This document shows positions 20,261 through 54,073 of a stretch of 64,000 bases of DNA, piece after piece. The stretch's first letter is position 1. Every line of letters begins with the position of its first letter. A program made the position numbers and the translations under genes. The notes beneath the pieces are model-generated. The model saw only the letters and a program-made list of their open reading frames with translations, made no database searches and was not told the DNA's origin. The DNA is taken from assembly GCF_053078305.1 (NCBI RefSeq), contig NZ_CP166879.1; one strand, given 5' to 3'.

Positions 20261-21853
20261 TTATTTATTGGTGAGTACTACGTTCCATGGCAAGAGTTCA
20301 TCAACTCGGTTGGAAGGCCATTCCGGCAGTACGCTCAGGATATGGCGCAGATACGCTTCCGGATCGATACCGTTCAGACGGCAGGTGCCGATCAGCCCGT
20401 ACAACAGTGCTCCACGCTCGCCGCCGTGATCGCTGCCAAAGAACATAAAGTTTTTCTTTCCGAGACAGACTGCACGAAGCGCTCTTTCCGCAGCATTATT
20501 ATCCGCCTCCGCCAGACCGTCATCACTGTAATAACAGAGGGCATCCCACTGATTCAGTACATAGCTGAACGCTTCGCCCAGTCTGGATTTTTTCGACAGC
20601 GTACCATTCTTCTCCACCATCCATTCATGCAGCGACGTCAGTAACACTTTGCTTCGCTGCTGCCTGACGGAAAGACGCTCTGACTCCGGTAATCCCCGTA
20701 TTTCATCCTCGATGGCGTACAGTTCACTGATTCGCTTCAGGGCTTCTTCTGCCTTCGCACTTTTGCTGCTGATGTATACATCGTGGATTTTTCGCCGGGC
20801 ATGGGCCCAGCACGCAACTTCTGTCAGTGCACCACCTTCACGTTCTGCACTGAACAACCTGTCGTAACCTGTGAACGCATCCGCCTGCAGGATACCCCGG
20901 AAGGGGCGGAGGTGTTGCTCCGGGTGTTTCCCCTGCCGGTTCGGCGAGTACGCGAACCAGACCGCTGGAGGAGATGACGAACCCACATTGCGATCATCCC
21001 GGACATACGTCCAGATACGCCCTGTTTTCGCCTTTTTCTGACCCGGTGCCAGTACCTTTACCGGTGTGTCATCAGTGTGAACCTTGCGGGTGTTCATTAC
21101 ATAACGGTACAGGGCATCATTCACCGGTGTCATTAACTGGCAGCACGCGTCAACCCAGTTGGAGAGTAAGGCCCGGCTCAGTTCGACACCCTTGCGGGCA
21201 AAGATTTCACTCTGACGATACAGTGGCAGATGTTCGCAGTATTTTCCCGTTAACACGCGGGCAAGTAATCCGGGGCCCGCGATACCACGCTCTATCGGGC
21301 GGGACGGCGCCGGTGCTTCAACGATGCAGTCACATTTTGTACAGGCTTTTTTTACCCGTTCTGTGCGGATCACTTTCAGGGCGCTGCTCACCAGTTCCAG
21401 TTGTTCTGCACTGACTTCCCCCAGATAATCCAGCTCACCGCCACACTCCGGGCAACAGCTTTCTTCAGACTCCAGACGGTGTATTTCACGGGGAAGGTGT
21501 GCCGGTAACGGACGACGATGGCGCGACTGTCGCAACTGGCGGGGAACCTGTGGATCGTCTTCCCGCCCACTGTAACGATCGCTGTCCTGTTCGCGTTGTT
21601 TCAGCAGGGCCTCAGCCTGTTCAACTTCACGACGCAGTTTTTCAGAACGGGTACCGAACAGCATCCGGCGCAGTTTTTCTATCTGAGCCCGCAGATGTTC
21701 TATTTCCCGTTCATCTTCTTCGATCTTTTCTTCGGCACGTGCCAGTGCAGAGCGCAGGAAGGCCTCCGTCTCTTCAACCAGACTCAGTTGCTGGTCTTTC
21801 TGACGGAGCTGGCTTTCCAGTTCTGCAATGCGAATGAGGTATTTCTGACTCAT
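20261..21853 (-). CDS. IS66-family transposase (TnpC / Orf3)
   Basis: 530 aa; N-terminal coiled-coil/leucine zipper and zinc-finger-like CxxC pairs (CPECG, CTKCDC) typical of IS66 transposases. Confidence 0.9.
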   Translation of the reverse strand: MSQKYLIRIAELESQLRQKDQQLSLVEETEAFLRSALARAEEKIEEDEREIEHLRAQIEKLRRMLFGTRSEKLRREVEQAEALLKQREQDSDRYSGREDDPQVPRQLRQSRHRRPLPAHLPREIHRLESEESCCPECGGELDYLGEVSAEQLELVSSALKVIRTERVKKACTKCDCIVEAPAPSRPIERGIAGPGLLARVLTGKYCEHLPLYRQSEIFARKGVELSRALLSNWVDACCQLMTPVNDALYRYVMNTRKVHTDDTPVKVLAPGQKKAKTGRIWTYVRDDRNVGSSSPPAVWFAYSPNRQGKHPEQHLRPFRGILQADAFTGYDRLFSAEREGGALTEVACWAHARRKIHDVYISSKSAKAEEALKRISELYAIEDEIRGLPESERLSVRQQRSKVLLTSLHEWMVEKNGTLSKKSRLGEAFSYVLNQWDALCYYSDDGLAEADNNAAERALRAVCLGKKNFMFFGSDHGGERGALLYGLIGTCRLNGIDPEAYLRHILSVLPEWPSNRVDELLPWNVVLTNK

Positions 21854-21883: not shown

Positions 21884-22234
21884 TTACAACATTGTCAGTG
21901 AGTTACGGCGGGATGTTTTTGGCTGACGCCAGTCCAGCTTATCGAGGAGCATTGCCAGTTGCGAGCGGGTAATGGATACCTTGCCGTCACGTACCGCAGG
22001 CCAGATAAACTGGCCTTCCTCCAGGCGTTTAGTGAACAGGCACAGACCATCAGCATCAGCCCAAAGAATTTTAACGGTGTCACCCCGTCGGCCACGGAAG
22101 ATAAACAGGTGACCGGAGAAGGGATTATCATTCAGCACATGTTGTACCTGTTCTCCCAGTCCGTTGAAGGATTTACGCATATCGGTAACGCCGGCAACGA
22201 GCCAGATACGGGTACCTGATGGGAGTGAGATCAT
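21884..22234 (-). CDS. IS66-family Orf2 (TnpB) accessory protein
   Basis: 116 aa, MISLPSGTRIWLVAGVTDMRKSFNGL...; overlaps orf1 by 4 nt. Confidence 0.9.
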   Translation of the reverse strand: MISLPSGTRIWLVAGVTDMRKSFNGLGEQVQHVLNDNPFSGHLFIFRGRRGDTVKILWADADGLCLFTKRLEEGQFIWPAVRDGKVSITRSQLAMLLDKLDWRQPKTSRRNSLTML

Positions 22235-22656
22235 CTTCCCCTCCCGGTCAGTTCACGGATCAACACCGTGAGCAGCTCTGGCGATGGATTTTCCAGCGTC
22301 ATGTTACCGTGACGGAATTCCACCTTGCAGGAGCTGGCACTGACTCTGGTCTGAGAGGTAGTGGATAAAGATGGCGCAATGGCCACCACAGGTTCTTTCT
22401 GCTCATCCGGCGTTATTTCTACAGGTAATAATTCAACGCCAGTGTCAGAAGAGGTCGTTACCGGAAGACGCCGCGAAACACGCCCTTCGTTCTGCCAGAG
22501 CCTGAGCCATTTGAACAGGAGGTTATCATTGATATCGTGTTCCCGGGCGATACGGGCAACAGAGGCTCCTGGTTGCAAAGCCAGTTTAACCATTTGAAGT
22601 TTAAAATTATTTGAAAATGATCTGCGGGGTTCTGCGGATAATGTTTTTTGCTCCAT
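22231..22656 (-). CDS. IS66-family Orf1 (TnpA) accessory protein
   Basis: 141 aa, MEQKTLSAEPRRSFSNNFKLQMVKLALQPGASVARIAREHDINDNLLFKW... Confidence 0.85.
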   Translation of the reverse strand: MEQKTLSAEPRRSFSNNFKLQMVKLALQPGASVARIAREHDINDNLLFKWLRLWQNEGRVSRRLPVTTSSDTGVELLPVEITPDEQKEPVVAIAPSLSTTSQTRVSASSCKVEFRHGNMTLENPSPELLTVLIRELTGRGR

Positions 22657-22708
22657 AACAGGCGTCCACTAGTTTGAAAAGGTGGGCACCTACGTTACCA
22701 ATACTGGC

Positions 22709-23003
22709 TTAATGGCTACATACGGCAGTCGGTTTACGCTTACCTTTGATCAGCCAGAGCCTGAGCCATTTGAACAGAAGATTATCATTGATATCATGCT
22801 CCCGGGCAATACGGGCAACAAAAACCCTTGGTTGTAAAGCCAGTTTAACCATTTGAAGTTTAAACTCATTTGAAAATGACCTGCGGGGTTCTGCGGATAA
22901 TGTTTTTTGTTCCATAACAGGCATCCACTAGTTTGAAAAGGTGGGCACCTACGTTACCAATACTGGCTTAATGGCTACATACGACGGTCGGTTTACGCTT
23001 ACC
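22709..23003 (-). mobile_element. Partial tandem duplicate of the IS66 end (5' part of orf1 plus terminal repeat)
   Basis: Sequence 22925-23003 nearly repeats 22657-22745; ORF 22709..22924 encodes a truncated Orf1 copy (MPVMEQKTLSAEPRRSFSNEFKLQMVKLALQP...). Confidence 0.7.
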
Positions 23004-23045
23004 AGAAAACTAATAGTGCTATATGCAATTTTTAATATTCAGACT

Positions 23046-25727
23046 TTAGCCTGACAGGCCTGACAAAAACGCGCCCAACTTCCCTTCTATATCACTGTCT
23101 ATAGTACGTAATCTTAGCAATGGCAGACCACATTTCTTCAGTATACTGTTTTTAAGTTCATCACGTTCAGCCTGGACACTGGTCAGATGATAGCCTCCAT
23201 CCACTTCAATAACCCCTAATGGAGTCTTCCCGACCTTATAGTAAACAACAAAGTCACAACTGGCCCGATTACGCATGAATAACAGTTCACGGTGAGTAAA
23301 ATCTCCCCGCTCCAGCAACACCAACTGATTCAGCGCTATTTGTGAATGAAACATCATGCTCCGATAACTATCCTGCGACAGGATATCCCGCAACAGGCAG
23401 GCCACAATCTGTTCTGACTTAAAGCGTGAATCATCTGAATTCAATCTACTATTCAGTCGTTCCAGTGATTTGTCATACTCACTGTACAGCAAATCAAATG
23501 CTGATATCACCGGGCTCTCGAAAATCTCTCCGTCATCAGCGTAGTATCTGATGTAACGAATCAGTGCCGCAATATGTCCAGCGTGGCGTTCAAATACATC
23601 ATTACCAGTCACCAACGTAAATTTGTTTCGGGCCCTTGAAACAGCGACATTCACCAGTTCAGGATTATCAACAAACGCGATATTCCGACTTTGCTGGCTG
23701 CTGCGTTTCTTATCCAGCACAGTGGAAAACACAATTTCATCGCACTCCCGTCCCTGAAATTTATGCACCGTCGATTTCACAAAATCAGCGGGCAGCACTG
23801 TTTCAGCCAGATTAACCTGTGCATTATATGGGGCGATATATCCCCTGCTACTTTCCTCATCCCAGTAATGTCCTTCCAGAGATTCAAGCTCCCTGAGATT
23901 TGAAAAATTACGGGTATGGTTTCCTTTTGCCGTGATGATCAGAGATAATGAGGCTTCACCTGAATCAAGCGTTAGCGGTATCAGAGCATTATCATAAAAC
24001 TGCTTATTACAAAATTGAATGATTTTAGGATGACAGCGATAATGCTCTTTAAGAAGAGTTACTGGCACCATATTCCTGAACGACATACAAACCGAATCAA
24101 GTAGACTATATTTCTCACAATTATAGTATTCTGCCGGTGGAGATGGGCTGTTCGGGAGTAATACAGGAACATGTGGAAGTTGCTTTCGATCCCCTACAAC
24201 GATTACATTACGGGCACATCCTAGTCCCAGAATGCCCGGAACAATATCCTGCTGTGAGGCTTCATCAATAATCACATAATCAAGAAGAGCCCCCTTACCG
24301 ATAGAGTTAATAATAGAATGCGTGCTGCTACCAATAACCGGAAAACGCTTTATAAAACGGTTAAATTCATCCCTGTATGTCTCTGCCGAGAATGAATTTC
24401 TTGTTGAAATATTTCTTCGCAGATGTTGTTTTAAATAAAGCACAGACCATGATGTCAGGCGCTCCAGTAAAATTTTAAAATCAGATTCCTTTAATACTTT
24501 CTCATATTCATTCAAAGAAATTTGTTTTTCCCGGATGGATTTTTCATAATAAGAAAGCTGAAGAGAAGTAAATAGTGCCAGCCTTCTCTCCGGAATCACC
24601 AATGGTTTGACTTTCAGTATCCTGAAGTTTAACAACAAATCAATTCTGTTTCTGAATCCAATCCGCCTGTCAGAAAGGTAATGAATATAAGCCATCAGGT
24701 CAGTTGTTTTTCGTGAGGAAAGTCGGTATTTGTGAGAAAAAAGCTCCTCCGGTCGAAGATTCTGACTCTGCCATTGCTGCAGGTATTTATACTCAACACT
24801 CAGTTCATTAATTTCTGCTTTTAACGAAGCAACCTGGTTGATAGCATTCAGGTGTTTTTTCACTTGTTGAAGTACATCATCAATCATATTTGCAGACGGT
24901 GAGTCAGGTAAGACTTCCTCAGAACGCGAAATCGACGTTGAAAAAAACTGTTGTCTGTTCTCCGTACTTCCCAGTCGTGCCACCACATATCCCAGTCGTT
25001 GTTTGTCCATTTTTTCATAAACATTACTGACAGCTGAGTTATTATTGGACAAAATTGCCACTGTTTTATTCTGAATTAATATATTGGCAACAATATTGAG
25101 AATAGTCTGTGTTTTACCTGTCCCAGGTGGTCCTTCAATAACTGAAATCTGTGAGGAAAATGCCCGTTCAACCGCCATTAACTGACTCTCATTCAGGCCA
25201 AACGGAAAAATCAACCCCCATGGCGAATCACGTTTTTTACTCTGTCCTGAACAGTATGCATGCAAGGCGGTATCCGGATGAGGAACTATTTTCTTTATCT
25301 GTCTGAGGATATTCTCATCGATATTTTTATTATTACCTCGAGCATAAAAAACACGTTCGTCAGCCACCCTGCACAAGTAATTAAACACGGCATGCTCTGT
25401 AAATGCTGAACACTGTTGAAAGTCAAGTCCGGTCGTTTTCATGATGTAGGGTCGTTCGCTCTCACGGTAATAAACAGCAGCATATTTATCACCATAGATA
25501 ATAACCCGTTCAGCCCGGGATGTTACAGCGTTCCCTTTCCTTTCGAGGAAAACATTTCGCAAAATTACAGTTGGCGTTATCTGACATACAGAAAGCGGAC
25601 GAGTATATTTTTTCCCGCTGCGAAAATGACAGGTCAGCATAACCTCTCCGTCATCATTTCCAGCCCACAGAGTCCAGTCGGTAATTTTATGAGTCTTATT
25701 TTCACCGTCAACACAAATCGTGACCAT
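23046..25727 (-). CDS. Superfamily-1 helicase fused to a C-terminal PD-(D/E)xK (DUF2726-like) nuclease domain; candidate defence protein
   Basis: 893 aa; Walker A GPPGTGKTQT, Walker B/motif II VIIDEASQ, further SF1 Upf1/DNA2-like motifs (VGDRKQLPHV, HYRCHPKIIQF, STVHKFQGRECD, VAVSRARNKF); C-terminal VIEVDGGYH...ERDELK...GLPLLRL; N-terminal ~180 aa unassigned. Confidence 0.75.
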   Translation of the reverse strand: MVTICVDGENKTHKITDWTLWAGNDDGEVMLTCHFRSGKKYTRPLSVCQITPTVILRNVFLERKGNAVTSRAERVIIYGDKYAAVYYRESERPYIMKTTGLDFQQCSAFTEHAVFNYLCRVADERVFYARGNNKNIDENILRQIKKIVPHPDTALHAYCSGQSKKRDSPWGLIFPFGLNESQLMAVERAFSSQISVIEGPPGTGKTQTILNIVANILIQNKTVAILSNNNSAVSNVYEKMDKQRLGYVVARLGSTENRQQFFSTSISRSEEVLPDSPSANMIDDVLQQVKKHLNAINQVASLKAEINELSVEYKYLQQWQSQNLRPEELFSHKYRLSSRKTTDLMAYIHYLSDRRIGFRNRIDLLLNFRILKVKPLVIPERRLALFTSLQLSYYEKSIREKQISLNEYEKVLKESDFKILLERLTSWSVLYLKQHLRRNISTRNSFSAETYRDEFNRFIKRFPVIGSSTHSIINSIGKGALLDYVIIDEASQQDIVPGILGLGCARNVIVVGDRKQLPHVPVLLPNSPSPPAEYYNCEKYSLLDSVCMSFRNMVPVTLLKEHYRCHPKIIQFCNKQFYDNALIPLTLDSGEASLSLIITAKGNHTRNFSNLRELESLEGHYWDEESSRGYIAPYNAQVNLAETVLPADFVKSTVHKFQGRECDEIVFSTVLDKKRSSQQSRNIAFVDNPELVNVAVSRARNKFTLVTGNDVFERHAGHIAALIRYIRYYADDGEIFESPVISAFDLLYSEYDKSLERLNSRLNSDDSRFKSEQIVACLLRDILSQDSYRSMMFHSQIALNQLVLLERGDFTHRELLFMRNRASCDFVVYYKVGKTPLGVIEVDGGYHLTSVQAERDELKNSILKKCGLPLLRLRTIDSDIEGKLGAFLSGLSG

Positions 25728-26235
25728 ATTCTCACTCAGTAATTATCATTTAACTTACGGAAAATTGTTATGAAACTCCCGATATTTACCCGGTAAAATA
25801 CTTGTCATTGTTTGAAGCCCTCCCTAAAAAATGACCAGGCATTTGATAACCCGGTGTATTTCTCCCGATATGAGCTCCGGAGGATTTTCCACAACTCCGG
25901 GTGTGTTAACATATTCCCGCCGGCCATATATACATTGAGTTCAGTCATAACAGTCAATACCAGGATTACAGGAACGCGATGCTGATACGCTGGTTATTGA
26001 ATACTGGTAGCCCCTAACTACTAATTCATCACGATACTCTGTACTTACTGTTTTTTACAACCATTCCCCCAGGTAAAAGAGTCCATTTATCATGCCCCTC
26101 TTTAACGCCTGCCAGCATAATTTAAGAATGGATACCGTGGGTGGAATTAACAATACCTGCTCAGGCCAATGCCATGTAACCGCCTCACTGAAAAAGCCAG
26201 ATCATCTAACCAGGTACAGACCAACATCGCAAAAA

Positions 26236-26385
26236 TTACCATGTAGCACGAACTGCTGTCATATTTCTGTTCAGGTATGCCGCTATTTCGCGGGTTTTCT
26301 TCACGCCATAATGCGTTTCAAGGTAGCGAACATCTTCGATTGTCCATGGTGTGCGCGCTCTTCCGGGGGTATTTTCCATTTCCAT
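26236..26385 (-). CDS. Small hypothetical protein (49 aa), possible DNA-binding protein; below the ORF-track length cutoff
   Basis: Own translation of the minus strand: MEMENTPGRARTPWTIEDVRYLETHYGVKKTREIAAYLNRNMTAVRATW; starts 15 nt downstream of the vasL-like stop; no homology support. Confidence 0.3.
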   Translation of the reverse strand: MEMENTPGRARTPWTIEDVRYLETHYGVKKTREIAAYLNRNMTAVRATW

Positions 26386-26400
26386 GTTTTATCTCAGCCA

Positions 26401-27765
26401 TTATGGCTGCCTCTCCTGATTGCCTGTGTGTTCCATCTGATAACGATTAATCAGCTGATTCAGTGCCATTTCAGCCTGTTTTTGCTGCTGTTCACTGCCA
26501 TTCTGATTACGGGCTTCATCATAGCGACGTAACTGCTCTTCTGCCGGGATATGCCGGTTAAAAGCCTGCATGATGCCAAACACCTCCGTTTTCAGTTCAC
26601 TGACCGTCATGTATTTTCCCCGCTGTTCATCCAGACGGTTCAGGCGCTCAGCCAGCTGCTGTAAGCGGGTCATGCCTTCGTTCCAGCCCGTCATCGCCTC
26701 TTCCGGAAGCGCTCGGCTCCTTACGCTCTTCTGCCAGTTATCCACCATTTCCTGAACACGGGGATTGTCGGGGAAAAGTCCCCTCAGTTGCTGCAGCAGC
26801 TGCGCACTGCGTTGCAGGTTGTATGCCGGCGGTAGTTCTGTCAGTCGCGTTATCTGCTGACCGGAAAGGGTTATCCACTCTGACGCATGATTTAACAGTG
26901 AGGGTGTTCTGCTGAGTTGCGCCATCTGGTCTGCTGAAAGCACATCCGGTAGTGGTGCCAGCAGCGCCCTGAGTTGCTGCTCCGCCGATGATGGCTGTGT
27001 CAGAAACTGCCATCCCGGAATGACCACGCTGACAGTCAGCAATGCCGCACAGACACCAGCCACAAACGGTTTCAGAAACGTGGGCGGGGATTTCTGAAGG
27101 GAGGGTGTGGGTTCTGCTTTTGTTTCAGAAACAACATACACCAGACGGGAGTACGGCAGGGGCTGATGTTCCTGTACATCCGGAGCATCAGACCGGAGTG
27201 CCTGAGCCGGAAGGGTTACCGGCGACGATACTTCACCCTGCACAGGCTGATTCTCCAGACGGGTGATATATCCCTTCACCATGGCTTCCGGTAAAGCCAC
27301 TTTACTGCTCTGTTTAAGTTCATGCCGGGCCAGTATGTCACTCAGCGTTTTCAGGCATGTTTCTGTCTGATACAGCAGGGGCAGATTGTCACGCTCATCC
27401 GGTGGCATGGCCCGGAGCGTTTTTTGCAGACGACTGAACAGACCGGTAATAATTTCCAGCCGGGCGTGGGTATTCAGCGGCCACATCACTGACCAGTGAT
27501 GCCGGGTCAGCGCCACAATCAGAGCCAGCCCTTCATTCAGACCACTTAACCCTGCTGTATGCATCCGGGCGATGGTGTACCAGGATACCGTCTGTAATTC
27601 CACGCCATTGTGTTCATACAGACGCAGGCAGAGCGTCTCCACATAACGCCAGTCCACATCCGGACGTGCCGGGTGAGTCAGCTTGCTGATTTCATCGCGC
27701 AGGGCAGCATAATCCGGTAATGACCGGGGGTCATTACCTGTTTTCAGTTTTACTTCAGAAGTCAT
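26401..27765 (-). CDS. T6SS-associated ImpA_N-domain membrane protein (VasL-like)
   Basis: 454 aa; N-terminal domain resembles the TssA N-terminus (DYAALRDEISKL...VSWYTIARMH versus TssA ...ATWYIWARL...) followed by one TM segment and a periplasmic region. Confidence 0.65.
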   Translation of the reverse strand: MTSEVKLKTGNDPRSLPDYAALRDEISKLTHPARPDVDWRYVETLCLRLYEHNGVELQTVSWYTIARMHTAGLSGLNEGLALIVALTRHHWSVMWPLNTHARLEIITGLFSRLQKTLRAMPPDERDNLPLLYQTETCLKTLSDILARHELKQSSKVALPEAMVKGYITRLENQPVQGEVSSPVTLPAQALRSDAPDVQEHQPLPYSRLVYVVSETKAEPTPSLQKSPPTFLKPFVAGVCAALLTVSVVIPGWQFLTQPSSAEQQLRALLAPLPDVLSADQMAQLSRTPSLLNHASEWITLSGQQITRLTELPPAYNLQRSAQLLQQLRGLFPDNPRVQEMVDNWQKSVRSRALPEEAMTGWNEGMTRLQQLAERLNRLDEQRGKYMTVSELKTEVFGIMQAFNRHIPAEEQLRRYDEARNQNGSEQQQKQAEMALNQLINRYQMEHTGNQERQP

Positions 27766-28177: not shown

Positions 28178-28627
28178 TCACCCCCTGAAAGTCATCACAT
28201 TATCCACAAACTGCTGTTGCTTCAGATATCGCAGTAACACCCTGCCCTCCGGCATAAAAGTTGTTCCGTAACGAACCAGTCCTGCATCTTTAAGTTCTGC
28301 ATCAATGACATAATGCAACTCACCAGGCTGAGTCTGTTCCTGCATCGTCACCCCGACACGCTTAATACGTGGCTCATACTTCAGCAGAACATCTGAAAGC
28401 ACACACATCAGTTGATGCGCCGTTCCCGGCATTCCCTGCAGAATGCTTGTCATATCCGGCAGACCATAATCCGGAAGATGTTTAAGGCTTCCGGCCCGGG
28501 TATTCAGAATACGCTGCATGTTATCGAGCACCGAAAGAATAACCTGCTCTTCCTCACTGACCTGGTTTAACTCCAGCCCGCCAGCGAAATTGCCATAGAG
28601 AATTTCATAAAGGGAAGGACGCGGCAT
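28178..28627 (-). CDS. tssE: T6SS baseplate component TssE (gp25-like)
   Basis: 149 aa from the internal ATG (ORF-track start is an upstream GTG); conserved SVLDNMQRILNTR...DYGLPD region. Confidence 0.8.
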   Translation of the reverse strand: MPRPSLYEILYGNFAGGLELNQVSEEEQVILSVLDNMQRILNTRAGSLKHLPDYGLPDMTSILQGMPGTAHQLMCVLSDVLLKYEPRIKRVGVTMQEQTQPGELHYVIDAELKDAGLVRYGTTFMPEGRVLLRYLKQQQFVDNVMTFRG

Positions 28628-28629
28628 CA

Positions 28630-29166
28630 CTATTTATCCTTCACCGGTAACAGCGTCAGGGTGTTACCGGATACTTCAATAAGACGGGGCGTGTCCGGCT
28701 CAAGCTCATCCCGGCTCAGCACCACCCGCCAGGTATTTTTCTTCCGGTCAGGCTCCAGAAACATTGCTGCCACACCGGTAAATTTCGCCGCATCATCCAG
28801 AGGCATATCCACGGCCACTGAACCACCTGGCTGCAGCCATACATCTTTCTGTGCAATGATATCGCCTGCCAGAATTTCACTGTCCCCCGTAAAAAGCGCC
28901 TGATAATCCGCGCTGTCAAAATTCCGGTTGTCTTTAAGCTGATAAATCCGCACCACAACCGACAGGGGAATACCGGCAGCACTGGTGTTAATGGCCTCCC
29001 TGGCACGAATATCAAGGTGAAGTGTTTTTATCTGTCGGTAAAACAGGGATTTCGTGGCAGATACCGTACCGTCTGCCACTCTTTGCGTCAGGCCACACCC
29101 TGATAACGACAGGGAAAACAACGCAATAATCAGACCGTAACCAGTCTTACCAGCGATAATCGCCAT
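28630..29166 (-). CDS. tssJ: T6SS outer membrane lipoprotein TssJ
   Basis: 178 aa; lipobox LSLSGC; size and operon position typical. Confidence 0.8.
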   Translation of the reverse strand: MAIIAGKTGYGLIIALFSLSLSGCGLTQRVADGTVSATKSLFYRQIKTLHLDIRAREAINTSAAGIPLSVVVRIYQLKDNRNFDSADYQALFTGDSEILAGDIIAQKDVWLQPGGSVAVDMPLDDAAKFTGVAAMFLEPDRKKNTWRVVLSRDELEPDTPRLIEVSGNTLTLLPVKDK

Positions 29167-30247
29167 TTTCCTGAGCCTCCTTACGTTGATAATGTTCCTG
29201 AACCCGCTGATAACGCCCCAGACTGATGGTCATTACGCGTGCCGCTGAAGTCGTTATCTTTGCCTGTGTTCTCATTACAGCCGTGCGCCCCAGTTGCGGA
29301 CTACCGGCTGCCGGTCGGCAACTGAGCCGGACATCCGGCAACAGTGAACGCTTAACACAAAGTTGCAGACGTACATCCAGACGGCTTCCCGGATAAACGT
29401 GCAACAACGCCAGCAAATCAGAATACAGCTGCCCGCCCGGTAACCAGCCCTGTACCTCGCTGCCCGTCTGTGTTGAAAGCTGTAATAACACCTGTCCGTT
29501 CACATCCGTAGCATGATCGCCCATCACCGGGTGACTCTTCAGACTGACCGGGTGATGAACACGCATGGTCAGCGGCGCTTTCAGCGGGATCCGTCGTCGG
29601 TCATGATGCCAGACACGGGCCTGTGTTCCGGGAGCCAGCAGCGTTACCAGTGATGTCAGCCCTTCAGCTGTTCTTCCGGGTAATAACATCAGGGGCAATA
29701 ACGCCAGAAAACGCGATACCGGCGTGGCAATATTCTGTGCACATCCGGGGATCCCCAGTCTGGCCAGGCCAAGCAGATACTGAGACGTTTTATCCTGCCC
29801 TCCCGGCTCAAAGGTGGCCGGGTACGAATACTTACGCCAGATACGGTAATACTGGGTGATCAGACGATGACTGAATATATCGAGAAAATCCGCTGCGGCC
29901 TCATGGCCTTCCCGCTGCTGTGCAATATCACTGATATAGTGTGCCGGCAGCGGAGACGTGACCCCGTAAAGTCCCATAAACGTCACCTGTACAGTGGGTT
30001 GCAGATGGGATTCTTCAGGAATTACAGCGTCTTTTATTTCACTCGCAGGAAACCCCATTCCCGGGTATGGACAAAAGAGGACCGCTTCCTGACGGGCCTG
30101 CCAGCCACTGCCAATGGGAGGCTGGTCTGGCTGGATTTGCTCCAGCAACTGACAGAAGCGATAAAAATTAATATACGGAAGCTGTTTCCGGTAACGGGTA
30201 ATTAACCGGGCAGGCGCGGATTGTGATTTTCTTTCCACCGGATGCAT
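29147..30247 (-). CDS. tssG: T6SS baseplate component TssG
   Basis: 366 aa; overlaps the tssF 3' end; position and length typical. Confidence 0.75.
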   Translation of the reverse strand: MHPVERKSQSAPARLITRYRKQLPYINFYRFCQLLEQIQPDQPPIGSGWQARQEAVLFCPYPGMGFPASEIKDAVIPEESHLQPTVQVTFMGLYGVTSPLPAHYISDIAQQREGHEAAADFLDIFSHRLITQYYRIWRKYSYPATFEPGGQDKTSQYLLGLARLGIPGCAQNIATPVSRFLALLPLMLLPGRTAEGLTSLVTLLAPGTQARVWHHDRRRIPLKAPLTMRVHHPVSLKSHPVMGDHATDVNGQVLLQLSTQTGSEVQGWLPGGQLYSDLLALLHVYPGSRLDVRLQLCVKRSLLPDVRLSCRPAAGSPQLGRTAVMRTQAKITTSAARVMTISLGRYQRVQEHYQRKEAQENGDYRW

Positions 30248-39793: not shown

Positions 39794-41476
39794 TTAAACA
39801 CCAGACATCATAACTTTAGTATTTTTTACTGCGTTATCATTCAATCGCTGCTGATCATCCATGTACCATACAGAACGAATCCAGCGATCATTTGGTTTAT
39901 TCGGAAAAACGAACGCCTTATTACCTTTAGGACCAAAGCGATGGATAAAAATCTCTCCCGTTGTAGGATCCACCCATAAATTACCATCAGACTCAATATT
40001 CCAGTTGGCAGAACAATGGGTGTATTTTCCGATAATATACAACTCTTCCTCAGTAAAAGCCTGAGGCTCTTGCCCCAAACGTACCGCTTTTCCCTGAGCA
40101 ATGGCTTTATCAACAAAAGGAATTAATTCAGGAGATAAATTCATATCTGGATTTTTGGGGTCAATTGGAGCAAACAATACCCCTGCTTCCTGAGCAGCAT
40201 CCAGCATCACACGCAGGCAAACATTAGCCCAGTCATTAGGTACTGCCATACGCTCAAAAAATACTGCGGCTCCCACCTGCTTTTGTATCACGCCAGCCCG
40301 ACGTTGATTGCTGTTGTTCACACCTACGGAACGAATTTTGGTGGTTAGTTTTCCATGAGGCAAAATATGTTTTAAGGCTGGCAGAGTCATCAACATTTTT
40401 CTGGCTTGCTCTGCATTACGGTATACTCGCGTATCTGTTTCTCTGGTATCGTCACTGACAATTTCAAATGCCGGGCAACTCAGAAACAGACTTTCATTTT
40501 CCTGCAGAGGTGAACCTACCGGATTGTAACCACCTCCAATATCTGAATGCGCCCCTGGTAAAGCCAGTTCGGGCCACATACCTTTAATACTGTTCAGGCT
40601 GAAATTATATCGGTATTCATTCATTGCAGTAATCTGGAAAACTTTCTTCGCGATGGAAGGACGCAATTCCAGCTTTACTCCCGGGTTGCTACGTCCATTA
40701 ATATCGAAGAAATTACTGATTCCACCAATAGCTGCGACAGTATCAAAAAGCCCCAGAAAACGGACTTCACCCGAAGGTTTACCATCATAAAAATCGCCTC
40801 TGAGCCCTTTAGCAATAGCTCTGGCTATAGCAGGATCCTGTTCCATAACCCGATTAGCAAAGTGCCTTGCCGCCGCTGCTCCCCGGCTAAAACCAAAAAC
40901 ATCAAACTGGATTTTTGCGATACAAAAATCAGGATTTAAATTGAACCCCATAAATTCTGATAACGCTTGGGTGATTCGTTCCATTGCCTCGTCGGTTTTC
41001 GTCACCACACCTTCAAATATATCCAGAATACTGGTGCCTAATCCCATGCCAATGACTGAATCTGCTTCACCAGCCGCAGTCCCTATCCCGGAAATGTAAG
41101 TCTGAATTTGTGCTTCAACCTGACTTTCCAACAAAGTCTGATCTGCTACGTAAAGTGAATTTAGCCAGTGGATATTGGAATAATATCCACGATAACTGCC
41201 ATTCGAGATACTGTTCTTGTTAATTTCTTCAAGAAAGTCCTCACAGCTTTGTGCATCTTTTTGATTTACCCCCTGTCTGGCTGCACTACACTCATTAAAT
41301 TTCATCAGACGAGATGCTGTATTCTCCCGATTGTTTCCGGTACCATCGAAAAATATACCAATGGTTAAAGTCACACCCCGCGCCGGTTTTTTCTTTGCAA
41401 CAACAACTTTCCAGTCATTATGAATACTGGTTTTATGGGTGGCATCTGTTACATCATATCCCTGATATTTTGTCAT
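39794..41476 (-). CDS. T6SS phospholipase effector, Tle1 family (DUF2235 alpha/beta hydrolase)
   Basis: 560 aa; hallmark motifs GIFFDGTGNN and GFSRGAAAARHF (GxSxG); start overlaps the vgrG stop (ATGA). Confidence 0.85.
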   Translation of the reverse strand: MTKYQGYDVTDATHKTSIHNDWKVVVAKKKPARGVTLTIGIFFDGTGNNRENTASRLMKFNECSAARQGVNQKDAQSCEDFLEEINKNSISNGSYRGYYSNIHWLNSLYVADQTLLESQVEAQIQTYISGIGTAAGEADSVIGMGLGTSILDIFEGVVTKTDEAMERITQALSEFMGFNLNPDFCIAKIQFDVFGFSRGAAAARHFANRVMEQDPAIARAIAKGLRGDFYDGKPSGEVRFLGLFDTVAAIGGISNFFDINGRSNPGVKLELRPSIAKKVFQITAMNEYRYNFSLNSIKGMWPELALPGAHSDIGGGYNPVGSPLQENESLFLSCPAFEIVSDDTRETDTRVYRNAEQARKMLMTLPALKHILPHGKLTTKIRSVGVNNSNQRRAGVIQKQVGAAVFFERMAVPNDWANVCLRVMLDAAQEAGVLFAPIDPKNPDMNLSPELIPFVDKAIAQGKAVRLGQEPQAFTEEELYIIGKYTHCSANWNIESDGNLWVDPTTGEIFIHRFGPKGNKAFVFPNKPNDRWIRSVWYMDDQQRLNDNAVKNTKVMMSGV

Positions 41477-43992
41477 TCTGTTTCTCCATGAATTTTTACC
41501 TTCCCAAACTCAACTTTTACTACTGACGGAATGGAGGTGTTGACTGGCGCTGTTTTACCATTTTCATCGGTGATCCCCTGTAGAATATCACCTTCAGCCG
41601 TTGTTAATCGATAAGGCGTCGAAGGTTGCGGCACTCCCGCTTCATCGGTAAGAATAAAACCGCCACCAAACCCTCGCGGCATTTCAACAGACGCAATATC
41701 AAGACTTGTTGGTCCCATCTTCTGCATATTCGTGCTTTTTAACAGGATCTGTCCCGGGCATCCCAGCTCAATATTTCCACCGCTTAGTTTGATATAAGCT
41801 CCACCACATGCCAGTATCAGTTCCTGATTAGCAGAAACAGTCACTTTGCCCTCAGAACTTTGAATATCAAGATTCTGTTGGGAACTCATTGACAAATCGT
41901 CACTTTGAGCCTGAATATTTACCCGCCCTTTTGCTGCTAACAGTTGCATCCCCTGGTTTCTGCTCAACAGGCTAACAGCACCTTCTGCTACAACTGTAAA
42001 TGACTGCCCGGCACTAATATCAGTGTTATCTCCCGACATTATGCCCACGCTTTCACTACCCGAAGCAATTCGTAACGCCCGTGCACTAACCATGCCAATC
42101 CCATCAGGAGCATGCAACAGCATTCCCGGCGCAGTGAGATCTGTTAGCGATGAATTCAACCGTTGCTGACAACTTATATCTCCCTGAGTAGCATTTGCAG
42201 CAGTTGCGGCCTTCGCCATACTTCGGGCCAGAGATAATGCCAGCTCCAGTTGGCGGATAGCTTCATTCATATCCAGCATCTTTCCTTGTGCCTGAGGCTG
42301 CATATCTGCACTGATAAATATTCCTTTTCCTCCCCGGATACTTATCCAGTCATCAGTCCTCAGCTCAGCGCCTTCTCCCCTGAGTTTCCGGGAGGCATTA
42401 ACGTTATGACCAAGATTAAGTTGTGTCTTACCGCCAAACTCGGTACTGATCTTGATATGCTCCTCACCGCGTTTGTCCTCCATCCGCAACTTGTTATTTG
42501 CCGGCGTACGGATAACATTGCGCGTACCGTTCTTATCGGTAACGTGATCAACATGACGTGAATCATGCAGGGCATGCGCGATATAGGGGCGATCCGGATC
42601 ACCTTCCTCAAAGGCAATGGCCACTTCCGTTCCCTGAATCAGCGGAAAATGAAAACCATAAGCATCACCACTGTAGGGTTTGGCCAGACGTACCGGCATG
42701 CTTTCCTGTCCCGGATTTTTATCATCACGGTCAGCATCAAATTTCACCCGGTACATACCTGATGCATCCTGCCAGGCGTAGATATCCCCTTCTTTTGCAC
42801 TGGTCACACGGGCCGTCATGGTACCGGTAACTTTCGGACGCGGCAGTAAAGGAGGACGCCAGCAGATAACTTCACTGTAAGGAACGCCCTTCAGTACAAC
42901 CTGCAGGGCATCCTTGCGACTTGCAGAAAAACCGACACAGGTAAGCAACACCGGATTGCGCAGCAGCGCAGGCAACGTCGGCGGAAGACTGTCGGTGATA
43001 GTCAGAACCTGAGCAGGTGCCAGCGTGGCGTCTGTACTGTTGCCGGTTATCCGCACCTGCTCCGCCAGATAACGTTCATGACCAAGGCGGGCATAAAAAT
43101 TGGCCGTCTCCGGCACCGGGTCGATTTTATCCCCCCGTTCCAGATGACGGAAATGGTAGTGGTACACCTCACCATAGTTAATTCCGTCACCATCACCATG
43201 CGTCATGTCTGCCGGGGCGGACTGCAACAGATATTGTGCTTCACGATGGTTATAAGCCTTTGTGGTGACACTGGCCTCTGCCACATTGTGCGTCACATTC
43301 AGCCCCCACACTGAATCCGCTCTGTTATCATTCATTCCGGACGGACTGTTTATCGCCAGCGTCTTATCAAACGTCAGCGCAGCCTGGCTGTCACCAAAAT
43401 GCACTACTTCCGTCTGCGTGTCCGGTTGCAGGGTGAAAAAATAAAAAATCCCCACTTCAGCCAGCAAACGCTGAATAAATTGCAGGTCACTTTCCTGATA
43501 CTGGTTAATTTGTTCACGCTTCGGATACGTTTTTTTGAGACGGAACTCAAACTCCCAGCCTTTCAGGCCGTGCTCCTGGAGAACCTCTGTCACCACCTCC
43601 GGCACCGATTTGTTAACGAAAAATCGGTGAGAACGATGCTGCCTGTCCAGTAGTTTAATAAATGGTTCCAGTATCACCTGGTATTTTGCCTGGTCGGCGG
43701 AGCCCGATATACGACGAAAATCTGTAATGACACCATGTACTACTTTCTGGCTCACCTGCTCCTTAAGCCCTCCCGTACCCATTGTAAATGTGGCTGATTT
43801 ACGCAGCAGCAGCCCGGCATCCAGGTCGTTGTCAGTACTGGTAAAATTGATGATGTAATAATAGGTCTGACTCATCTCCTCCCTGCCGCTGAAATGCTCA
43901 ACATCCAGTGGTGACGGGCAGGAGGGAATAATTAAATGGTAACGATTCAGGGAAGCAGAGATAGTTTTTGAAAGTGTATCTGTCAGACTCAT
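41473..43992 (-). CDS. vgrG: T6SS spike protein VgrG with C-terminal extension
   Basis: 839 aa; GGAG RBS; longer than the ~650-aa core, consistent with a C-terminal effector-binding extension. Confidence 0.9.
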   Translation of the reverse strand: MSLTDTLSKTISASLNRYHLIIPSCPSPLDVEHFSGREEMSQTYYYIINFTSTDNDLDAGLLLRKSATFTMGTGGLKEQVSQKVVHGVITDFRRISGSADQAKYQVILEPFIKLLDRQHRSHRFFVNKSVPEVVTEVLQEHGLKGWEFEFRLKKTYPKREQINQYQESDLQFIQRLLAEVGIFYFFTLQPDTQTEVVHFGDSQAALTFDKTLAINSPSGMNDNRADSVWGLNVTHNVAEASVTTKAYNHREAQYLLQSAPADMTHGDGDGINYGEVYHYHFRHLERGDKIDPVPETANFYARLGHERYLAEQVRITGNSTDATLAPAQVLTITDSLPPTLPALLRNPVLLTCVGFSASRKDALQVVLKGVPYSEVICWRPPLLPRPKVTGTMTARVTSAKEGDIYAWQDASGMYRVKFDADRDDKNPGQESMPVRLAKPYSGDAYGFHFPLIQGTEVAIAFEEGDPDRPYIAHALHDSRHVDHVTDKNGTRNVIRTPANNKLRMEDKRGEEHIKISTEFGGKTQLNLGHNVNASRKLRGEGAELRTDDWISIRGGKGIFISADMQPQAQGKMLDMNEAIRQLELALSLARSMAKAATAANATQGDISCQQRLNSSLTDLTAPGMLLHAPDGIGMVSARALRIASGSESVGIMSGDNTDISAGQSFTVVAEGAVSLLSRNQGMQLLAAKGRVNIQAQSDDLSMSSQQNLDIQSSEGKVTVSANQELILACGGAYIKLSGGNIELGCPGQILLKSTNMQKMGPTSLDIASVEMPRGFGGGFILTDEAGVPQPSTPYRLTTAEGDILQGITDENGKTAPVNTSIPSVVKVEFGKVKIHGETE

Positions 43993-44070
43993 ATTGTTAA
44001 CTCCATGTCTGTACCGGTATTGAACTGCAATTATATAATGATGACCGTTAAGCTTTATTTTCAGAGAGAA

Positions 44071-44298
44071 TTACTGATAATCATCCCATTCATCGTAAAT
44101 ATATGCATATGCAAATCGATACATCAGATAACCGACAAAAAATAACGCAACAGAGAGCCCTCCCCACAGATATTTAAATTCAGCAGATGAGAGAAAAAAG
44201 AACCAGACTGTAAATACAATACCCGACGCACCTAACCCCATACCTGCGCCACGGATAAATCGGGAAAGCATTATAAGTAATGTTCTTTTTATCTTCAT
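44071..44298 (-). CDS. Small two-TM membrane protein (75 aa), unknown; possible immunity protein
   Basis: Internal ATG at 44298 overlaps the stop of the upstream gene (ATGA); hydrophobic (GMGLGASGIVFTVWFFFL, LSVALFFVGYLMYRF); AT-rich. Confidence 0.5.
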   Translation of the reverse strand: MKIKRTLLIMLSRFIRGAGMGLGASGIVFTVWFFFLSSAEFKYLWGGLSVALFFVGYLMYRFAYAYIYDEWDDYQ

Positions 44299-44936
44299 AA
44301 ACCACCGAAAAAATATTCGCATATCCGGTCAAACTCAGCCGAATTTCGGTCTGCGACAATACAGGCTCGTTCAAACGGGCGCACAATATCTTCAACAAGA
44401 AAGTACAAAAGATCCAAATCCCCCTGAGCTTTCAGCTTATCATGCAACACCGGATTTCTGTCTTTCAGAAAACGGGATGTGTAAATCGCACGCGATGTCT
44501 CTGCGCCAACAGATAATAACAACCCGGCAAAACTCCCTGCAAAAAAAGCAGCCAGCCCTCTGGATACCAGAACCTCTCCCAGTTTAACCCCGGTCAATTC
44601 AGCAAATGCCATTCTACCTGCCAGATCTCCTGAAACGTTCTTCACAATGGAGCCTGTTTTTTCCATATTGATCCGGGATACAAAGTCTTCAAGACAAATA
44701 CTGATAATTTTCCCAATAATATCACGGCTGAAAATGCCTTTTTCTACCAGTCTGGCCATTCTGAATTTGTCATTCTGGTTTTCCCGCCTATGCCCGGTAT
44801 CTATAAAATCATATCCCATATAACCGAGACTGACTGGCAAAGATATGAGTCCCTTCCCGACGGCCCCCAGAAACCCATCCCCATTAATATTTACGGCCTC
44901 CAGCATATCCCGGGCAATTTCTTTAGCACTGTCCAT
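44295..44936 (-). CDS. Hypothetical protein (213 aa) between clpV and vgrG, unknown function
   Basis: ATG at 44936 chosen just downstream of the clpV stop; AT-rich; no recognised domain. Confidence 0.5.
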   Translation of the reverse strand: MDSAKEIARDMLEAVNINGDGFLGAVGKGLISLPVSLGYMGYDFIDTGHRRENQNDKFRMARLVEKGIFSRDIIGKIISICLEDFVSRINMEKTGSIVKNVSGDLAGRMAFAELTGVKLGEVLVSRGLAAFFAGSFAGLLLSVGAETSRAIYTSRFLKDRNPVLHDKLKAQGDLDLLYFLVEDIVRPFERACIVADRNSAEFDRICEYFFGGL

Positions 44937-47610
44937 ATATGCTTTCCTGCGGATAATCGCTATTGATTCCATCAAACGCTATCACAATACCATCCTCATC
45001 ATTCCACGTCAGAGACAGGTACGTCGGATGCTGTCTGGCAGCAAGATAGCTGAGCAACTGCCGGCTCAGTACCGGCAGCAGTTGCTGGTTCAGCAGACTC
45101 TCCACATTCCGGGCGCCCGTATCCGGCAGCAGGCAGGCGGATGTCAGGGCATCGTACACACGTTCATCAACCGATGTGCTCAGCCCATAATGGCAGTGCA
45201 GGCGTTCGCAGACCTGTGCAAGCTTCATCTCCACAATGGTGCGCATGGCAGACTGCGTCAGCGGACGGTAAATCACGGTCCGGAAACGGGCAAGCAGTGC
45301 TGGCTGGAAGTGGTCGCGCAGCAGTGGACGGATAAGCTCATGCAGCTCCGATTCCGTTGTCTCCGGCTTTTCGCTAAGTTGCTGCATCAGAAGGTCACTG
45401 CCCAGATTGGAGGTCATCAGAATGACCGTATTACGGAAGTCAATTTCACGCCCCTCACCGTCGCGCATAAAGCCCCGGTCAAACACCTGGTAGAACAGAT
45501 TCAGCACATCCCGGTGGGCCTTTTCCACTTCATCCAGCAGCACCACGCTGTAAGGGCGTTTACGCACAGCCTCCGTCAGAATACCGCCCTGACCGTATCC
45601 CACGTACCCGGGCGGTGACCCCTTAAGCTGGGAAACCGTATGGGGCTCCTGGTATTCCGACAGATTGATGGTAATCAGTGATTTTTCGCCGCCGTACATC
45701 ACGTCTGCCAGCGCCAGTGCCGTTTCGGTTTTTCCCACACCACTGGGACCGACCAGCAGGAACACCCCCTGGGGGCCGTTACCGGATGTCAGACCCGTTT
45801 TCGCCGCACGCAGACGCTGCGCAATGGATTCCAGTGCCACGTCCTGTCCGACCACCCGTCTGCCGATATCCTTTTCCAGATGCAGCAGTTCCGTCTGTTC
45901 GTCCTTCATCAGGGAAGATAACGGCACCCCGGTCCGGTCCGCGACCACACCGGCAACGGTGCGTACGTCAACATCCACACTGAGCAGGGGCTGATTCTGC
46001 TGAATGTCGTGCAGTGCCTGCTGCAGGTGATGTGTCTCACTCTGGCGGGAAATATCGCTGCGGCTTTCAAGTAACTCACCGGTGAGTTCGCACTCCCGGG
46101 CGTACTGCTGCTCCAGGTCATCACGTGCTGTCATCAGCTCGTTCTCTTCCTGCTCAATGGCAGACAGACGTTCGCCGTGATTCTGATGACCAACGGCAAT
46201 ATCTTCCAGCAGTGCCTGTTTTTCCATACCGAGGGAAGCGAGCTGTGAACGGATACGGGTCAGCTGTTCCGGCACCGTGTCGAGGCTCATACGCACACGG
46301 GCAGCAGCAGTATCGAGCAGGTCAACAGCCTTGTCCGGTAACTGGCGTTCTGTCAGATAACGGCGCGACAGCGTGACGGCAGCACGTACCGCCTCATCGG
46401 TGATATGCACGTTATGATGTTCCGCATAACGGGATTTCAGGGAGCGCAGCATCAGACAGGCCGTCTCATCATCCGGCTCGTCCACTCTGACCATCTGAAA
46501 ACGCCGCTCCAGAGCCGCGTCACGTTCCAGGTATTGTTTGTACTCAGACCAGGTGGTGGCGGCAATGGTACGCAGTTCACCCCGCGCCAGCGCAGGCTTC
46601 AGCAGGTTGGCCGCATCCGCGCCGCCGGCCTGATTACCGGCCCCGATAAGGGTATGGGCTTCATCTATAAACAACAGTACAGGAGCCGGTGACTGCTGCA
46701 CGGCATCAATCACGTTTTTCAGGCGCTGTTCAAATTCACCCTTCACGCCGGCACCGGCCTGCAGCAGGCCGAGGTCAAGGGTGCGCAGGGTGACGGGTCT
46801 GAGTGATTCCGGTACGTTACCTTCCGCAATACGCAGGGCGAGCCCTTCCACCAGAGCCGTTTTCCCCACACCAGGGTCCCCCACCAGAATCGGGTTGTTC
46901 TTGCGGCGGCGGGAGAGAATATCCACCATCTGACGGATTTCCGTATCGCGTCCCGATACCGGGTCAATTTTCCCCTCTCTCGCGCTGGCCGTGATGTCCC
47001 GGGTGAATTTATCCAGAGCACTCTGTAACACAGGCGGCAGGTCACCTGACGGTATACCCGCCGTATCCGCACCGACGGGACGCCCGATAAAGGTCACATT
47101 GTCTCCCTGAGGCAGCACAGGCTCTGCATCCTGTAATCTCTCCGGACACTCATCAGACTGCGCATCCAGCAGCGGGGACAGACGCTGCAACTGGCTATGA
47201 CTCAGTGTCAGCAGCGGCCACAGCCCGTCACAGCGAACCAGGTGCGGATTTTCCGTCAGGGCACCCAGCAGATGCACGCTGCGGATATGTTCTTCTCCCT
47301 GTAATGAGGCCACCATCCAGGCCTGTTTCAGCAGGGCATTCAGGGACGGCGCAAGCTGCGGGCAGCTGCGTACGCTACGGGGCTGGTTATCCAGCCAGCC
47401 GAGCAGCGACTGCCATATCGCGTCCATATCCCAGTCATAACGCCGGCCCAGCACGGTAAGGTCTCCTTCGCCCTGCTCCAGCAGTTTCAGTAACCAGTGC
47501 TCCGGGGTGATTTCCGCATGGGCCCGGGTCTGGCAAAGGGAGGCTGCGCCTTCCAGTGCACGGGCACAGTAATGATTAAGACGGCGTAACAGAGCTGCCG
47601 GATTTTCCAT
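44923..47610 (-). CDS. clpV: T6SS AAA+ ATPase ClpV (TssH)
   Basis: About 895 aa from the internal ATG (ORF-track start is GTG at 47619); two AAA+ modules with Walker A motifs GDPGVGKT and GPSGVGKT. Confidence 0.9.
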
Positions 47611-47730
47611 GTTATTCACTCACTGTCAGAAGACCTTCAGACACGCTACCGCCCTTCGCCATAACCCGGGCGCATCAGGTCTGTGTTCAGGACTGAGAAT
47701 TCTTTCTTCAGCACCCGCCAGCAGATACTG

Positions 47731-47770
47731 AAGAAAAAAGAAAAATGACGGACAGGATACCCTGCCCGTC
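47731..47770 (-). terminator. Stem-loop with U-tract between hcp and clpV (terminator or attenuator)
   Basis: Minus-strand GACGGGCAGG-GTAT-CCTGTCCGTC (one mismatch) followed by ATTTTTCTTTTTTCTT, directly after the hcp stop. Confidence 0.5.
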
Positions 47771-47778
47771 CGGGAGAA

Positions 47779-48270
47779 TTACGCAGTGGTACGTTCATTC
47801 CACGCGTCAGAATGAATGATGTTACCGTCCTTATAAGTCCAGGTGATTTTCTCGTAGCGCAGCTCCACCTGCTCAAGGTGGTTATGCTTCTCGTAGGCGG
47901 GATTCTTGATGTCGTGCATGACCGGGTTAACCTTCACCACCTTCACGTTCTCAAGCTTCGTATTGAAATACTCCACTTCCTGACCGGCATCATTGATTCT
48001 GTACCACTTAAACTCAGCAGACTTCAGGGTCTGCCCCGTGGTCACCGCCTTGTAAAGGTAGGGGCTGGAAGAATCAATTTCCTTGGTAAACAGGAACGGC
48101 GTGTGAATACGGGTACCGGTCAGCTTACCGGTATTGTTATCCGTCGGAATGTAAAGGCAGTGCTCCTGAGCCACCACTTCAATACTGCCCTCACGGTCCT
48201 TCACATCCACGGAGCCTTTAATATCCGCTCCGCCATCATCCTGCAGCCACAGATAAACAGGAATTGCCAT
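47779..48270 (-). CDS. hcp: T6SS tube protein Hcp
   Basis: 163 aa from ATG at 48270 (RBS GAGGGAG); MAIPVYLWLQDDGGADIKGSVDV... typical Hcp; the ORF-track 5' extension was rejected. Confidence 0.9.
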   Translation of the reverse strand: MAIPVYLWLQDDGGADIKGSVDVKDREGSIEVVAQEHCLYIPTDNNTGKLTGTRIHTPFLFTKEIDSSSPYLYKAVTTGQTLKSAEFKWYRINDAGQEVEYFNTKLENVKVVKVNPVMHDIKNPAYEKHNHLEQVELRYEKITWTYKDGNIIHSDAWNERTTA

Positions 48271-48304
48271 AAAGTTACTCCCTCTCGTTGTCTTACGCGC
48301 CCTG

Positions 48305-50005: not shown

Positions 50006-50007
50006 GG

Positions 50008-51995: not shown

Positions 51996-52010
51996 TTCCC
52001 GACGCCTGCC

Positions 52011-53549: not shown

Positions 53550-53575
53550 CAGCATGCTCTCTCTTAATCCGTTAA

Positions 53576-54073
53576 TCACACCTGTTCCGGCACCAGTGCA
53601 CTCAGTTCGTCACGTAAGGCCTGACTCAGTTCGGGATCCCGCAGAATTTTTTCCAGTTCTTTACGGAAAGTGGCGTTATCCAGCAGATTCGCCTTCAGAT
53701 CCCGCAGAAGGCTGCGCATGGCCAGCATGGCTTTAAGACGGGGAATTTGTCGGGCGATCTGCTCTGGCGTGAAGTCGTTCATATTGCGGAAAGTCAGGCT
53801 GATGCTTTCTTCAGAGCCATCACCGGCAAGCGTGTTCTCCACATTCAGGCGTACTGACGGCGAGATATCAGCCAGAACAGCATTAAAGTTATTTTTATTA
53901 ACATCCATTTTTATGCGCTCTGACAGCGGGCGCTCTTCCTGTCCGTTACTGAAATCACCGGCAACCAGCAGTTTGAGCGGAAGCTCCACTTTCTTCTGCC
54001 CACCACCTGTATGTAGGTCTAATTTCAGATTCACCCTTGCCTTCGGGATCTCATTCTGAAACGAACTGCTCAT
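53576..54073 (-). CDS. tssB: T6SS sheath small subunit TssB (VipA)
   Basis: 165 aa from ATG at 54073 with AGGAG RBS; the ORF-track start at 54097 has no RBS. Confidence 0.9.
   Translation of the reverse strand: MSSSFQNEIPKARVNLKLDLHTGGGQKKVELPLKLLVAGDFSNGQEERPLSERIKMDVNKNNFNAVLADISPSVRLNVENTLAGDGSEESISLTFRNMNDFTPEQIARQIPRLKAMLAMRSLLRDLKANLLDNATFRKELEKILRDPELSQALRDELSALVPEQV

Follow-up and report, generated by a model that had tools for sequence, protein, structure and literature searches.

The combination of an ImpA_N and a VasL domain is known as TagA in the T6SS literature (PMC6745524). In other E. coli strains, full-length genes encoding proteins of 210 and 204 aa begin 15-19 nt past the same VasL gene that is discussed here. 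RefSeq lists the longer protein, WP_032234106.1, as a "SANT/Myb-like DNA-binding domain-containing protein", with WP_244588867.1 as the 204-aa form, and both are uncharacterised. An AlphaFold2 model built on a 22-sequence alignment displays four tandem three-helix units, with a mean pLDDT of 84.9.

Among solved structures, the profile of the full-length family matches c-Myb, B-Myb and MYB3 (PDB 1h88, 1gv2, 1a5j and 3zqc) with E-values ranging from 1.9e-7 to 1.6e-6, the best value being obtained for c-Myb R1R2R3, and it also weakly matches GcrA. The best Foldseek matches of the model are tandem-Myb proteins as well, including SNAPc4, c-Myb and Reb1, with weak E-values (1.6e-3 at best) and low global TM-scores of 0.26 or less. 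Three-helix repeats, each with a conserved aromatic residue where helix 1 begins, are common to the family and to eukaryotic Myb, whereas the canonical third Trp of the eukaryotic repeats is replaced by a nearly invariant Ala in the bacterial family. The Pfam Myb_DNA-binding model (PF00249) scores the full-length protein at 21.2 bits, under its gathering cut-off of 24.4.

Two further described groups show a likeness. Repeat 2 of the full-length protein weakly resembles the N-terminal domain of GcrA (PF07750; PDB 5yiu), with E-values of 0.0017 to 0.00026 in Pfam, at a score under the Pfam cut-off, and 0.013 against the PDB; the protein lacks the C-terminal, sigma-70-interacting part of GcrA, and the 49-aa ORF examined in this study is not involved in the resemblance. 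PHROG 323, a "transcriptional regulator" family with tandem Myb-like repeats, matches the full-length protein at 1.9e-23 and the 49-aa ORF at 8.2e-7. PHROG 323 is a phage family, however, whereas the locus described here is chromosomal and T6SS-linked, and is not a prophage. A tblastn search of 50,697 phage records returned only one weak match, with 35% identity over half the protein.

The window, meaning the whole 64-kb stretch of DNA that was analysed, belongs to an E. coli chromosome and is 99.9% identical to strain 04-00955 across the region. The 49-aa ORF that it contains is, with high probability, a non-functional 5' remnant of the four-repeat Myb-like gene, cut by an exchange of cassettes, as comparison with intact and truncated alleles suggests. 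The ORF is referred to below as the stump.

Position and composition of the ORF

The ORF occupies 26236..26385 on the minus strand and consists of 47 inherited codons, two junction codons and a stop. It had been left unlisted solely owing to the 60-aa cut-off of the ORF list and was singled out in a sequence-only reading, whose basic description holds: the ORF is real, begins with ATG and translates into the peptide given there. Its start lies 15 nt past the TAA of the vasL-like gene (26401-26403), on the same strand, in agreement with the coordinates of that reading. The product, described as basic and helix-rich, is mildly basic, with a pI of 9.4, a net charge of +1.6 and eight K/R against six D/E, and three helices are predicted in it. 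The spacer between the TagA/VasL stop and the ATG of the stump (26386..26400, minus strand, 15 nt) carries a Shine-Dalgarno match that is not above background.

GenBank contains the identical 49-aa peptide, from ~70 contigs, under the title "hypothetical protein [Escherichia coli]". A variant of 54 aa, WP_157911220.1, is known from ~71 contigs, and RefSeq annotates it in a genome with 99.9% identity. The stump is a fragment of an annotated family, deposited under the name of a hypothetical protein and called inconsistently by annotators. On the opposite strand, a 146-aa ORF with an ATG start (26092..26532, plus strand) overlaps the stump and the last part of tagA in antisense; in all likelihood it is no more than a shadow of the coding strand.

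Homology to the full-length gene and the breakpoint

By tblastn, residues 1-47 of the 210-aa protein map to 26385..26245 of the window with 95.7% identity (E = 2e-25), and none of the remaining ~160 codons is encoded in the 64 kb, all other matches having E > 2. The homologous segment (26245..26385, minus strand) corresponds to codons 1-47 of the 204-210-aa SANT/Myb-like gene, encompassing the first two helices of repeat 1 and the beginning of its third. DNA alignments to full-length alleles lose homology abruptly at 26245, with unrelated DNA beyond, and megablast matches to these alleles finish at query positions 355-362, equivalent to window positions 26246-26239. Where the full-length alleles encode ...AVRAMAYLVGI..., the stump has the junction codons ACA TGG TAA (26236..26244, minus strand), specifying Thr48, Trp49 and a stop, which the alignments assign to the incoming cassette. 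The 5' flank is the same as that of the intact gene. The ORF thus displays what characterises a gene remnant, namely a match to just one part of a longer gene, which relatives carry intact and whose other part is lost here; homology, breakpoint and missing remainder are all observed directly.

The limits of the exchange were located by comparing the helicase-type locus of strain 1105 (L006) with the Zorya-type locus of strain E300010 (L003), which has the intact gene. The left breakpoint lies inside the Myb-like gene (L006:5147 = L003:6358), and the right breakpoint ~40 nt upstream of a PAPS-reductase (ibrA-like) gene (L006:8842 = L003:12143). The 3' three quarters of the Myb-like gene were replaced; an insertion splitting the gene was considered and rejected, its 3' part being missing from the whole window. 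Direct and inverted repeats were also sought around the cassette, and only short pairs at chance level emerged, with no att-like or IS-end signature.

The most probable course of events would start from an ancestral four-repeat Myb-like gene following TagA/VasL at the end of the T6SS cluster. Recombination would have replaced this gene from codon 48 onward, down to ~40 nt upstream of the ibrA-like PAPS-reductase gene, with the incoming cassette bringing an SF1 helicase/DUF2726 gene. Two codons and a TAA from the foreign DNA would have closed the frame at 49 codons, and the stump would keep its ancestral upstream region, neither maintained by selection nor serving a role of its own. The direction of this event, with the full-length gene as the ancestral state, and the stump's lack of function are what we infer from the comparisons.

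The full-length gene and its family

Relatives of the full-length protein comprise 3,583 cluster representatives at E <= 0.001, with the close relatives confined to Escherichia, and neither the full-length protein nor the stump has a match in NCBIfam or PADLOC. In other organisms, four-repeat relatives at 33-38% identity are again found directly after an ImpA_N+VasL gene. These distant genes, located at L013:1590-2231, L015:1414-2046 and L018/L019:5001-5651, each follow an ImpA_N+VasL gene of 454-469 aa, and in L018 and L019 the Myb-like gene closes a tssF-tssG-tssJ-tssE-...-vasL block. One relative is not found directly after an ImpA_N+VasL gene. The DNA of the distant tagA-linked relatives (L015, L018) has no match in E. 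coli genomes.

Because distant relatives also follow an ImpA_N+VasL gene, their arrangement supports the full-length, tagA-linked form as the probable ancestral state. The pairing of tagA with a four-Myb-repeat gene is conserved across genera and is uncharacterised, and the Myb-like gene is a plausible candidate for a T6SS-linked DNA-binding protein. A literature search for a Myb-like gene linked to VasL or the T6SS found nothing specific.

Several arrangements of the Myb-like gene were encountered besides these. In a 299-aa chimera, P0007, the N-terminal part of TssK (PF05936) is fused to the last ~75 residues of the Myb-like protein; such a fusion would imply a large T6SS deletion in some strain. 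The intact Myb-like gene also persists at loci that have lost most of the T6SS cluster (L002, L009). A 214-aa gene after VasL in strain EC-16-35 was considered as a divergent Myb-like allele and rejected, the two being unrelated.

The TagA gene and the T6SS cluster

The gene preceding the stump encodes a 454-aa TagA-type T6SS accessory protein (26401..27765, minus strand), recognised by Pfam VasL at 2.8e-38 and ImpA_N at 4.4e-17. All 454 codons of its ORF can be read without interruption, both in the window and in each of the seven related loci compared (L001, L003, L004, L006, L008, L010 and L011). RefSeq/PGAP cuts the gene into two or three fragments, mostly labelled as "incomplete" pseudogenes (ImpA N-terminal, hypothetical/POTRA, VasL), a fragmentation that is probably an annotation artefact.

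Further upstream lies an apparently complete T6SS cluster (28178..54097, minus strand), including genes for TssB, TssC, TssK, an OmpA-domain TssL-like protein, ClpV, VgrG, TssM, a TssA with a VasJ domain and TssF/G/J/E, together with a Tle1-like phospholipase effector (39794..41476). Since the cluster appears complete, the apparatus is apparently intact in spite of the lost Myb-like gene.

The helicase cassette and its leader

The incoming segment extends in the window from 26244 down to ~23024, forming a 3.2-kb cassette whose right end was placed at ~23024 by homology to strain 1105. It carries a gene for an 893-aa SF1 helicase (AAA_11/AAA_12) with a C-terminal DUF2726 (23046..25727, minus strand), as recognised with Pfam, PADLOC and NCBIfam. 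The protein matches the Mokosh models MkoA (4.3e-43) and MkoC (2e-41) of PADLOC and the helicase regions of ProA/Hhe in NCBIfam, and lacks a PLD nuclease. It may be a Mokosh-like defence candidate consisting of a single gene. Records of the O157:H7 EDL933 type show the helicase gene broken into two ORFs.

IS66-family debris stands right after the cassette (21884..22924 and 20261..21853, minus strand). It contains two partial, near-duplicate tnpA-like ORFs sharing the same N-terminal sequence (22231..22656, 141 aa, and 22709..22924, 71 aa), a tnpB-like ORF (21884..22234) and, after it, a 530-aa IS66 transposase (20261..21853), all on the minus strand.

Between the helicase gene and the stump lies a 508-bp non-coding leader of the cassette (25728..26235, minus strand), unrelated to the Myb-like gene in DNA alignment. 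Stump and leader are common to all helicase-junction genomes, an association that might point to a non-coding role, the DNA being kept, for instance, to form the 3' end of the T6SS transcript or part of the regulatory leader of the helicase cassette, with the ORF incidental. The leader does contain one terminator-like site (25855..25834) and weak promoter-like sites near 25771..25742, but these sites, at 25742-25855, lie at least 380 nt downstream of the stump, and their numbers show no excess over shuffled sequence (4 promoter-like sites against 2.1 +/- 1.6, and 1 terminator-like site against 1.1). A promoter and terminator scan at the stump or adjoining it found none, an Rfam scan of 25500-26600 at E <= 1 returned nothing, and the sequence of the stump diverges freely between clades. 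Furthermore, O157:H7-type loci contain the cassette from window position ~26078 on, without VasL, the stump or the first ~170 nt of the leader, although the helicase ORF there is split. A non-coding role is accordingly judged very improbable, and the remnant of a gene cut by cassette exchange remains the preferred reading of the stump.

Selection, decay and structure of the stump

A functional micro-protein, in which a single Myb-like repeat coupled to tagA translation would bind DNA or titrate the partner of the full-length regulator, is very improbable. In its favour, the ATG lies 15 nt past the tagA stop on the same strand, and the stump, which keeps the ancestral upstream region, may be co-transcribed with tagA and occasionally translated. 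The anti-SD duplex energies of its two candidate ATGs, -2.7 and -3.3 kcal/mol, are nevertheless at the level of the window background, with a median of about -3. PGAP annotates the ORF in some genomes: a 1-bp change in the A-run of the spacer puts an upstream ATG in frame and leads to a 54-aa call in two genomes, and no stump is called in four of the six helicase-junction loci inspected (RM14721, 1105, PapRG-04-4 and CFIAFB20190172).

The pattern of substitution argues against a maintained protein. Two stump clades with one and the same junction show 27 differences over 150 positions (~18%); over a longer stretch of 465 nt, their identity is 89.5%. The dN/dS between these clades is 0.95, with 5.5 synonymous and 19.5 non-synonymous changes, and that of the RM14721-type stump against the closest intact allele is 0.77, in comparison with 0.20-0.66 for codons 47-203 of the intact alleles. 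In a binomial test, the non-synonymous fraction of the stump is compatible with omega = 1, and omega <= 0.3 is rejected (P = 0.04), the small counts (20-25 changes) leaving weak purifying selection at an omega of about 0.6-0.7 possible.

Frame conservation, proposed as a check in the sequence-only reading, gives a divided answer. The frame is open in the two clades lying ~18% apart, as the micro-protein would require, but a neutral simulation at the observed substitution density keeps it open in ~40% of trials, so that its openness there carries no information. A third clade has a broken frame, the PapRG-04-4 stump having TGG>TAG at codon 14 in addition to a replaced internal segment. In the RM14721-type stump, Leu38, which 20 of 22 family members have, is changed to Arg (L38R). 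The purifying selection characteristic of the family is thus not seen in the stump, and the relaxed selection and independent decay of related copies that mark a remnant are directly observed. By its substitution pattern the stump evolves like a dead gene fragment, with no sign of selection apparent.

The stump also retains some structural features of repeat 1. In the model of the full-length protein, the helices of repeat 1 comprise residues 16-25, 31-38 and 42-52, and the 22-sequence alignment identifies W14, Y26, R40, A49 and G53 as its nearly invariant residues. The stump retains W14, Y26 and R40, and AlphaFold2 predicts the 49-mer as a compact three-helix unit with a mean pLDDT of 81, although neither this prediction nor the unchanged 5' flank counts as evidence of function. 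The conserved end of the recognition helix is gone, however, with A49 changed to Trp and G53 absent; helix 3 is shortened from 11 to 7 residues, and Asn stands at the S/T position 41. The stump shares with the family its sequence homology and its position right after an ImpA_N+VasL gene on the same strand, but it holds one repeat, cut in helix 3, where family members have four repeats and ~200-215 aa. Its rarity, at only ~15 of 5,426 complete genomes, speaks further against a functional micro-protein.

Searches with the stump alone gave no match in NCBIfam or, above cut-off, in Pfam, none to PF00249 at E <= 1 and nothing in the PDB at E <= 10 by phmmer. An assignment to DUF7841 (Pfam E = 0.069) was rejected as noise, at 13.8 bits against a cut-off of 25.2. 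The junction-derived Trp at codon 49 (26239..26241) falls by chance at the canonical third Trp of eukaryotic Myb repeats, a coincidence through which the stump could pass for a "complete" Myb repeat in profile searches.

The suggestion of a small DNA-binding protein or regulator in the sequence-only reading is consequently right in ancestry, the stump being repeat 1 of a four-repeat Myb-like protein (phrog_323 match at 8e-7; family profile against c-Myb at 1.9e-7), and wrong as to a stand-alone gene, since the ORF is no more than the 5' quarter left of a 204-210-aa gene, with a dN/dS of 0.95, and is broken further in related loci. Its remark that the ORF may equally be non-coding comes nearer the truth, given the neutral evolution and the decay. 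That the stump is still translated through coupling to tagA and retains residual activity, such as weak DNA binding or partner interference, is very improbable; if true, cassette exchange would have given rise to a bacterial micro-protein with a single Myb repeat.

The probability of a chance ORF in intergenic DNA, related to no gene, is negligible: ORFs of such length are common, with 85 of at least 30 aa overlapping the same 8-kb stretch, and a length of 49 aa alone is not beyond chance, but the 96% identity to residues 1-47 of the longer gene makes the ORF non-random and, with the phrog_323 match, refutes this explanation.

Population distribution and the cargo slot

Counts were obtained across the 5,426 complete E. 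coli genomes. The 3' end of this VasL gene is present in 878 genomes, the full-length Myb-like gene in 21, the stump with the helicase-cassette junction in ~15, and a shorter, frameshifted stump of ~122 nt abutting other cargo in 245. In APEC O1, this ~122-nt stump abuts a hypothetical gene, a KAP NTPase and QatC, and in ST131-type genomes homology is lost exactly at the VasL stop.

The slot between tagA/VasL and the ibrA-like PAPS-reductase/IbrB/PerC block, as seen in the window (23024..26400) and in loci L003, L005, L006, L008, L010, L020, L021 and L022, has variable cargo in E. coli. It contains Zorya II with bactofilin, Qat/KAP NTPase, the SF1 helicase/DUF2726 gene, an unrelated 214-aa gene, or a TraG fragment with Dcm and an ATPase. 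Its left breakpoints are spread over various places within or ahead of the Myb-like gene. The varied states after tagA therefore indicate a hypervariable cargo slot in which the Myb-like gene is clipped at different points. The slot looks like a defence-island hotspot, much of the cargo being anti-phage defence systems; a literature search found no description of a defence hotspot at the tagA-ibrA-like slot.

The stump itself is of little importance, serving chiefly as a marker of the left breakpoint of a cassette exchange in this slot, which in different E. coli holds Zorya II, Qat or the Mokosh-like helicase. Of more interest are the tagA/four-Myb-repeat pair, the cargo slot, the Mokosh-like helicase/DUF2726 gene and the splitting of the TagA ORF by PGAP. 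The fragment also points to the uncharacterised four-repeat Myb-like gene that adjoins tagA across genera.

Comparison with known systems

The closest known counterparts of the stump are the full-length proteins WP_032234106.1 and WP_244588867.1. The stump occupies the same place as their genes after the TagA/VasL gene, with 96% identity over residues 1-47. Upstream, the stump and the full-length allele of LH13-b have the same sequence over the ~35 nt compared. Relative to WP_032234106.1, the copy in the window is without residues 48-210, so that its repeat 1 lacks the end and repeats 2-4 are missing altogether.

Plants have single-repeat R3-MYB micro-proteins of the CPC/TRY type, in which one Myb repeat competes with multi-repeat relatives. 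These micro-proteins are conserved under selection and keep a complete repeat. They offer a conceptual analogue only, and only of the micro-protein explanation, whereas the stump is cut inside helix 3 and evolves neutrally.
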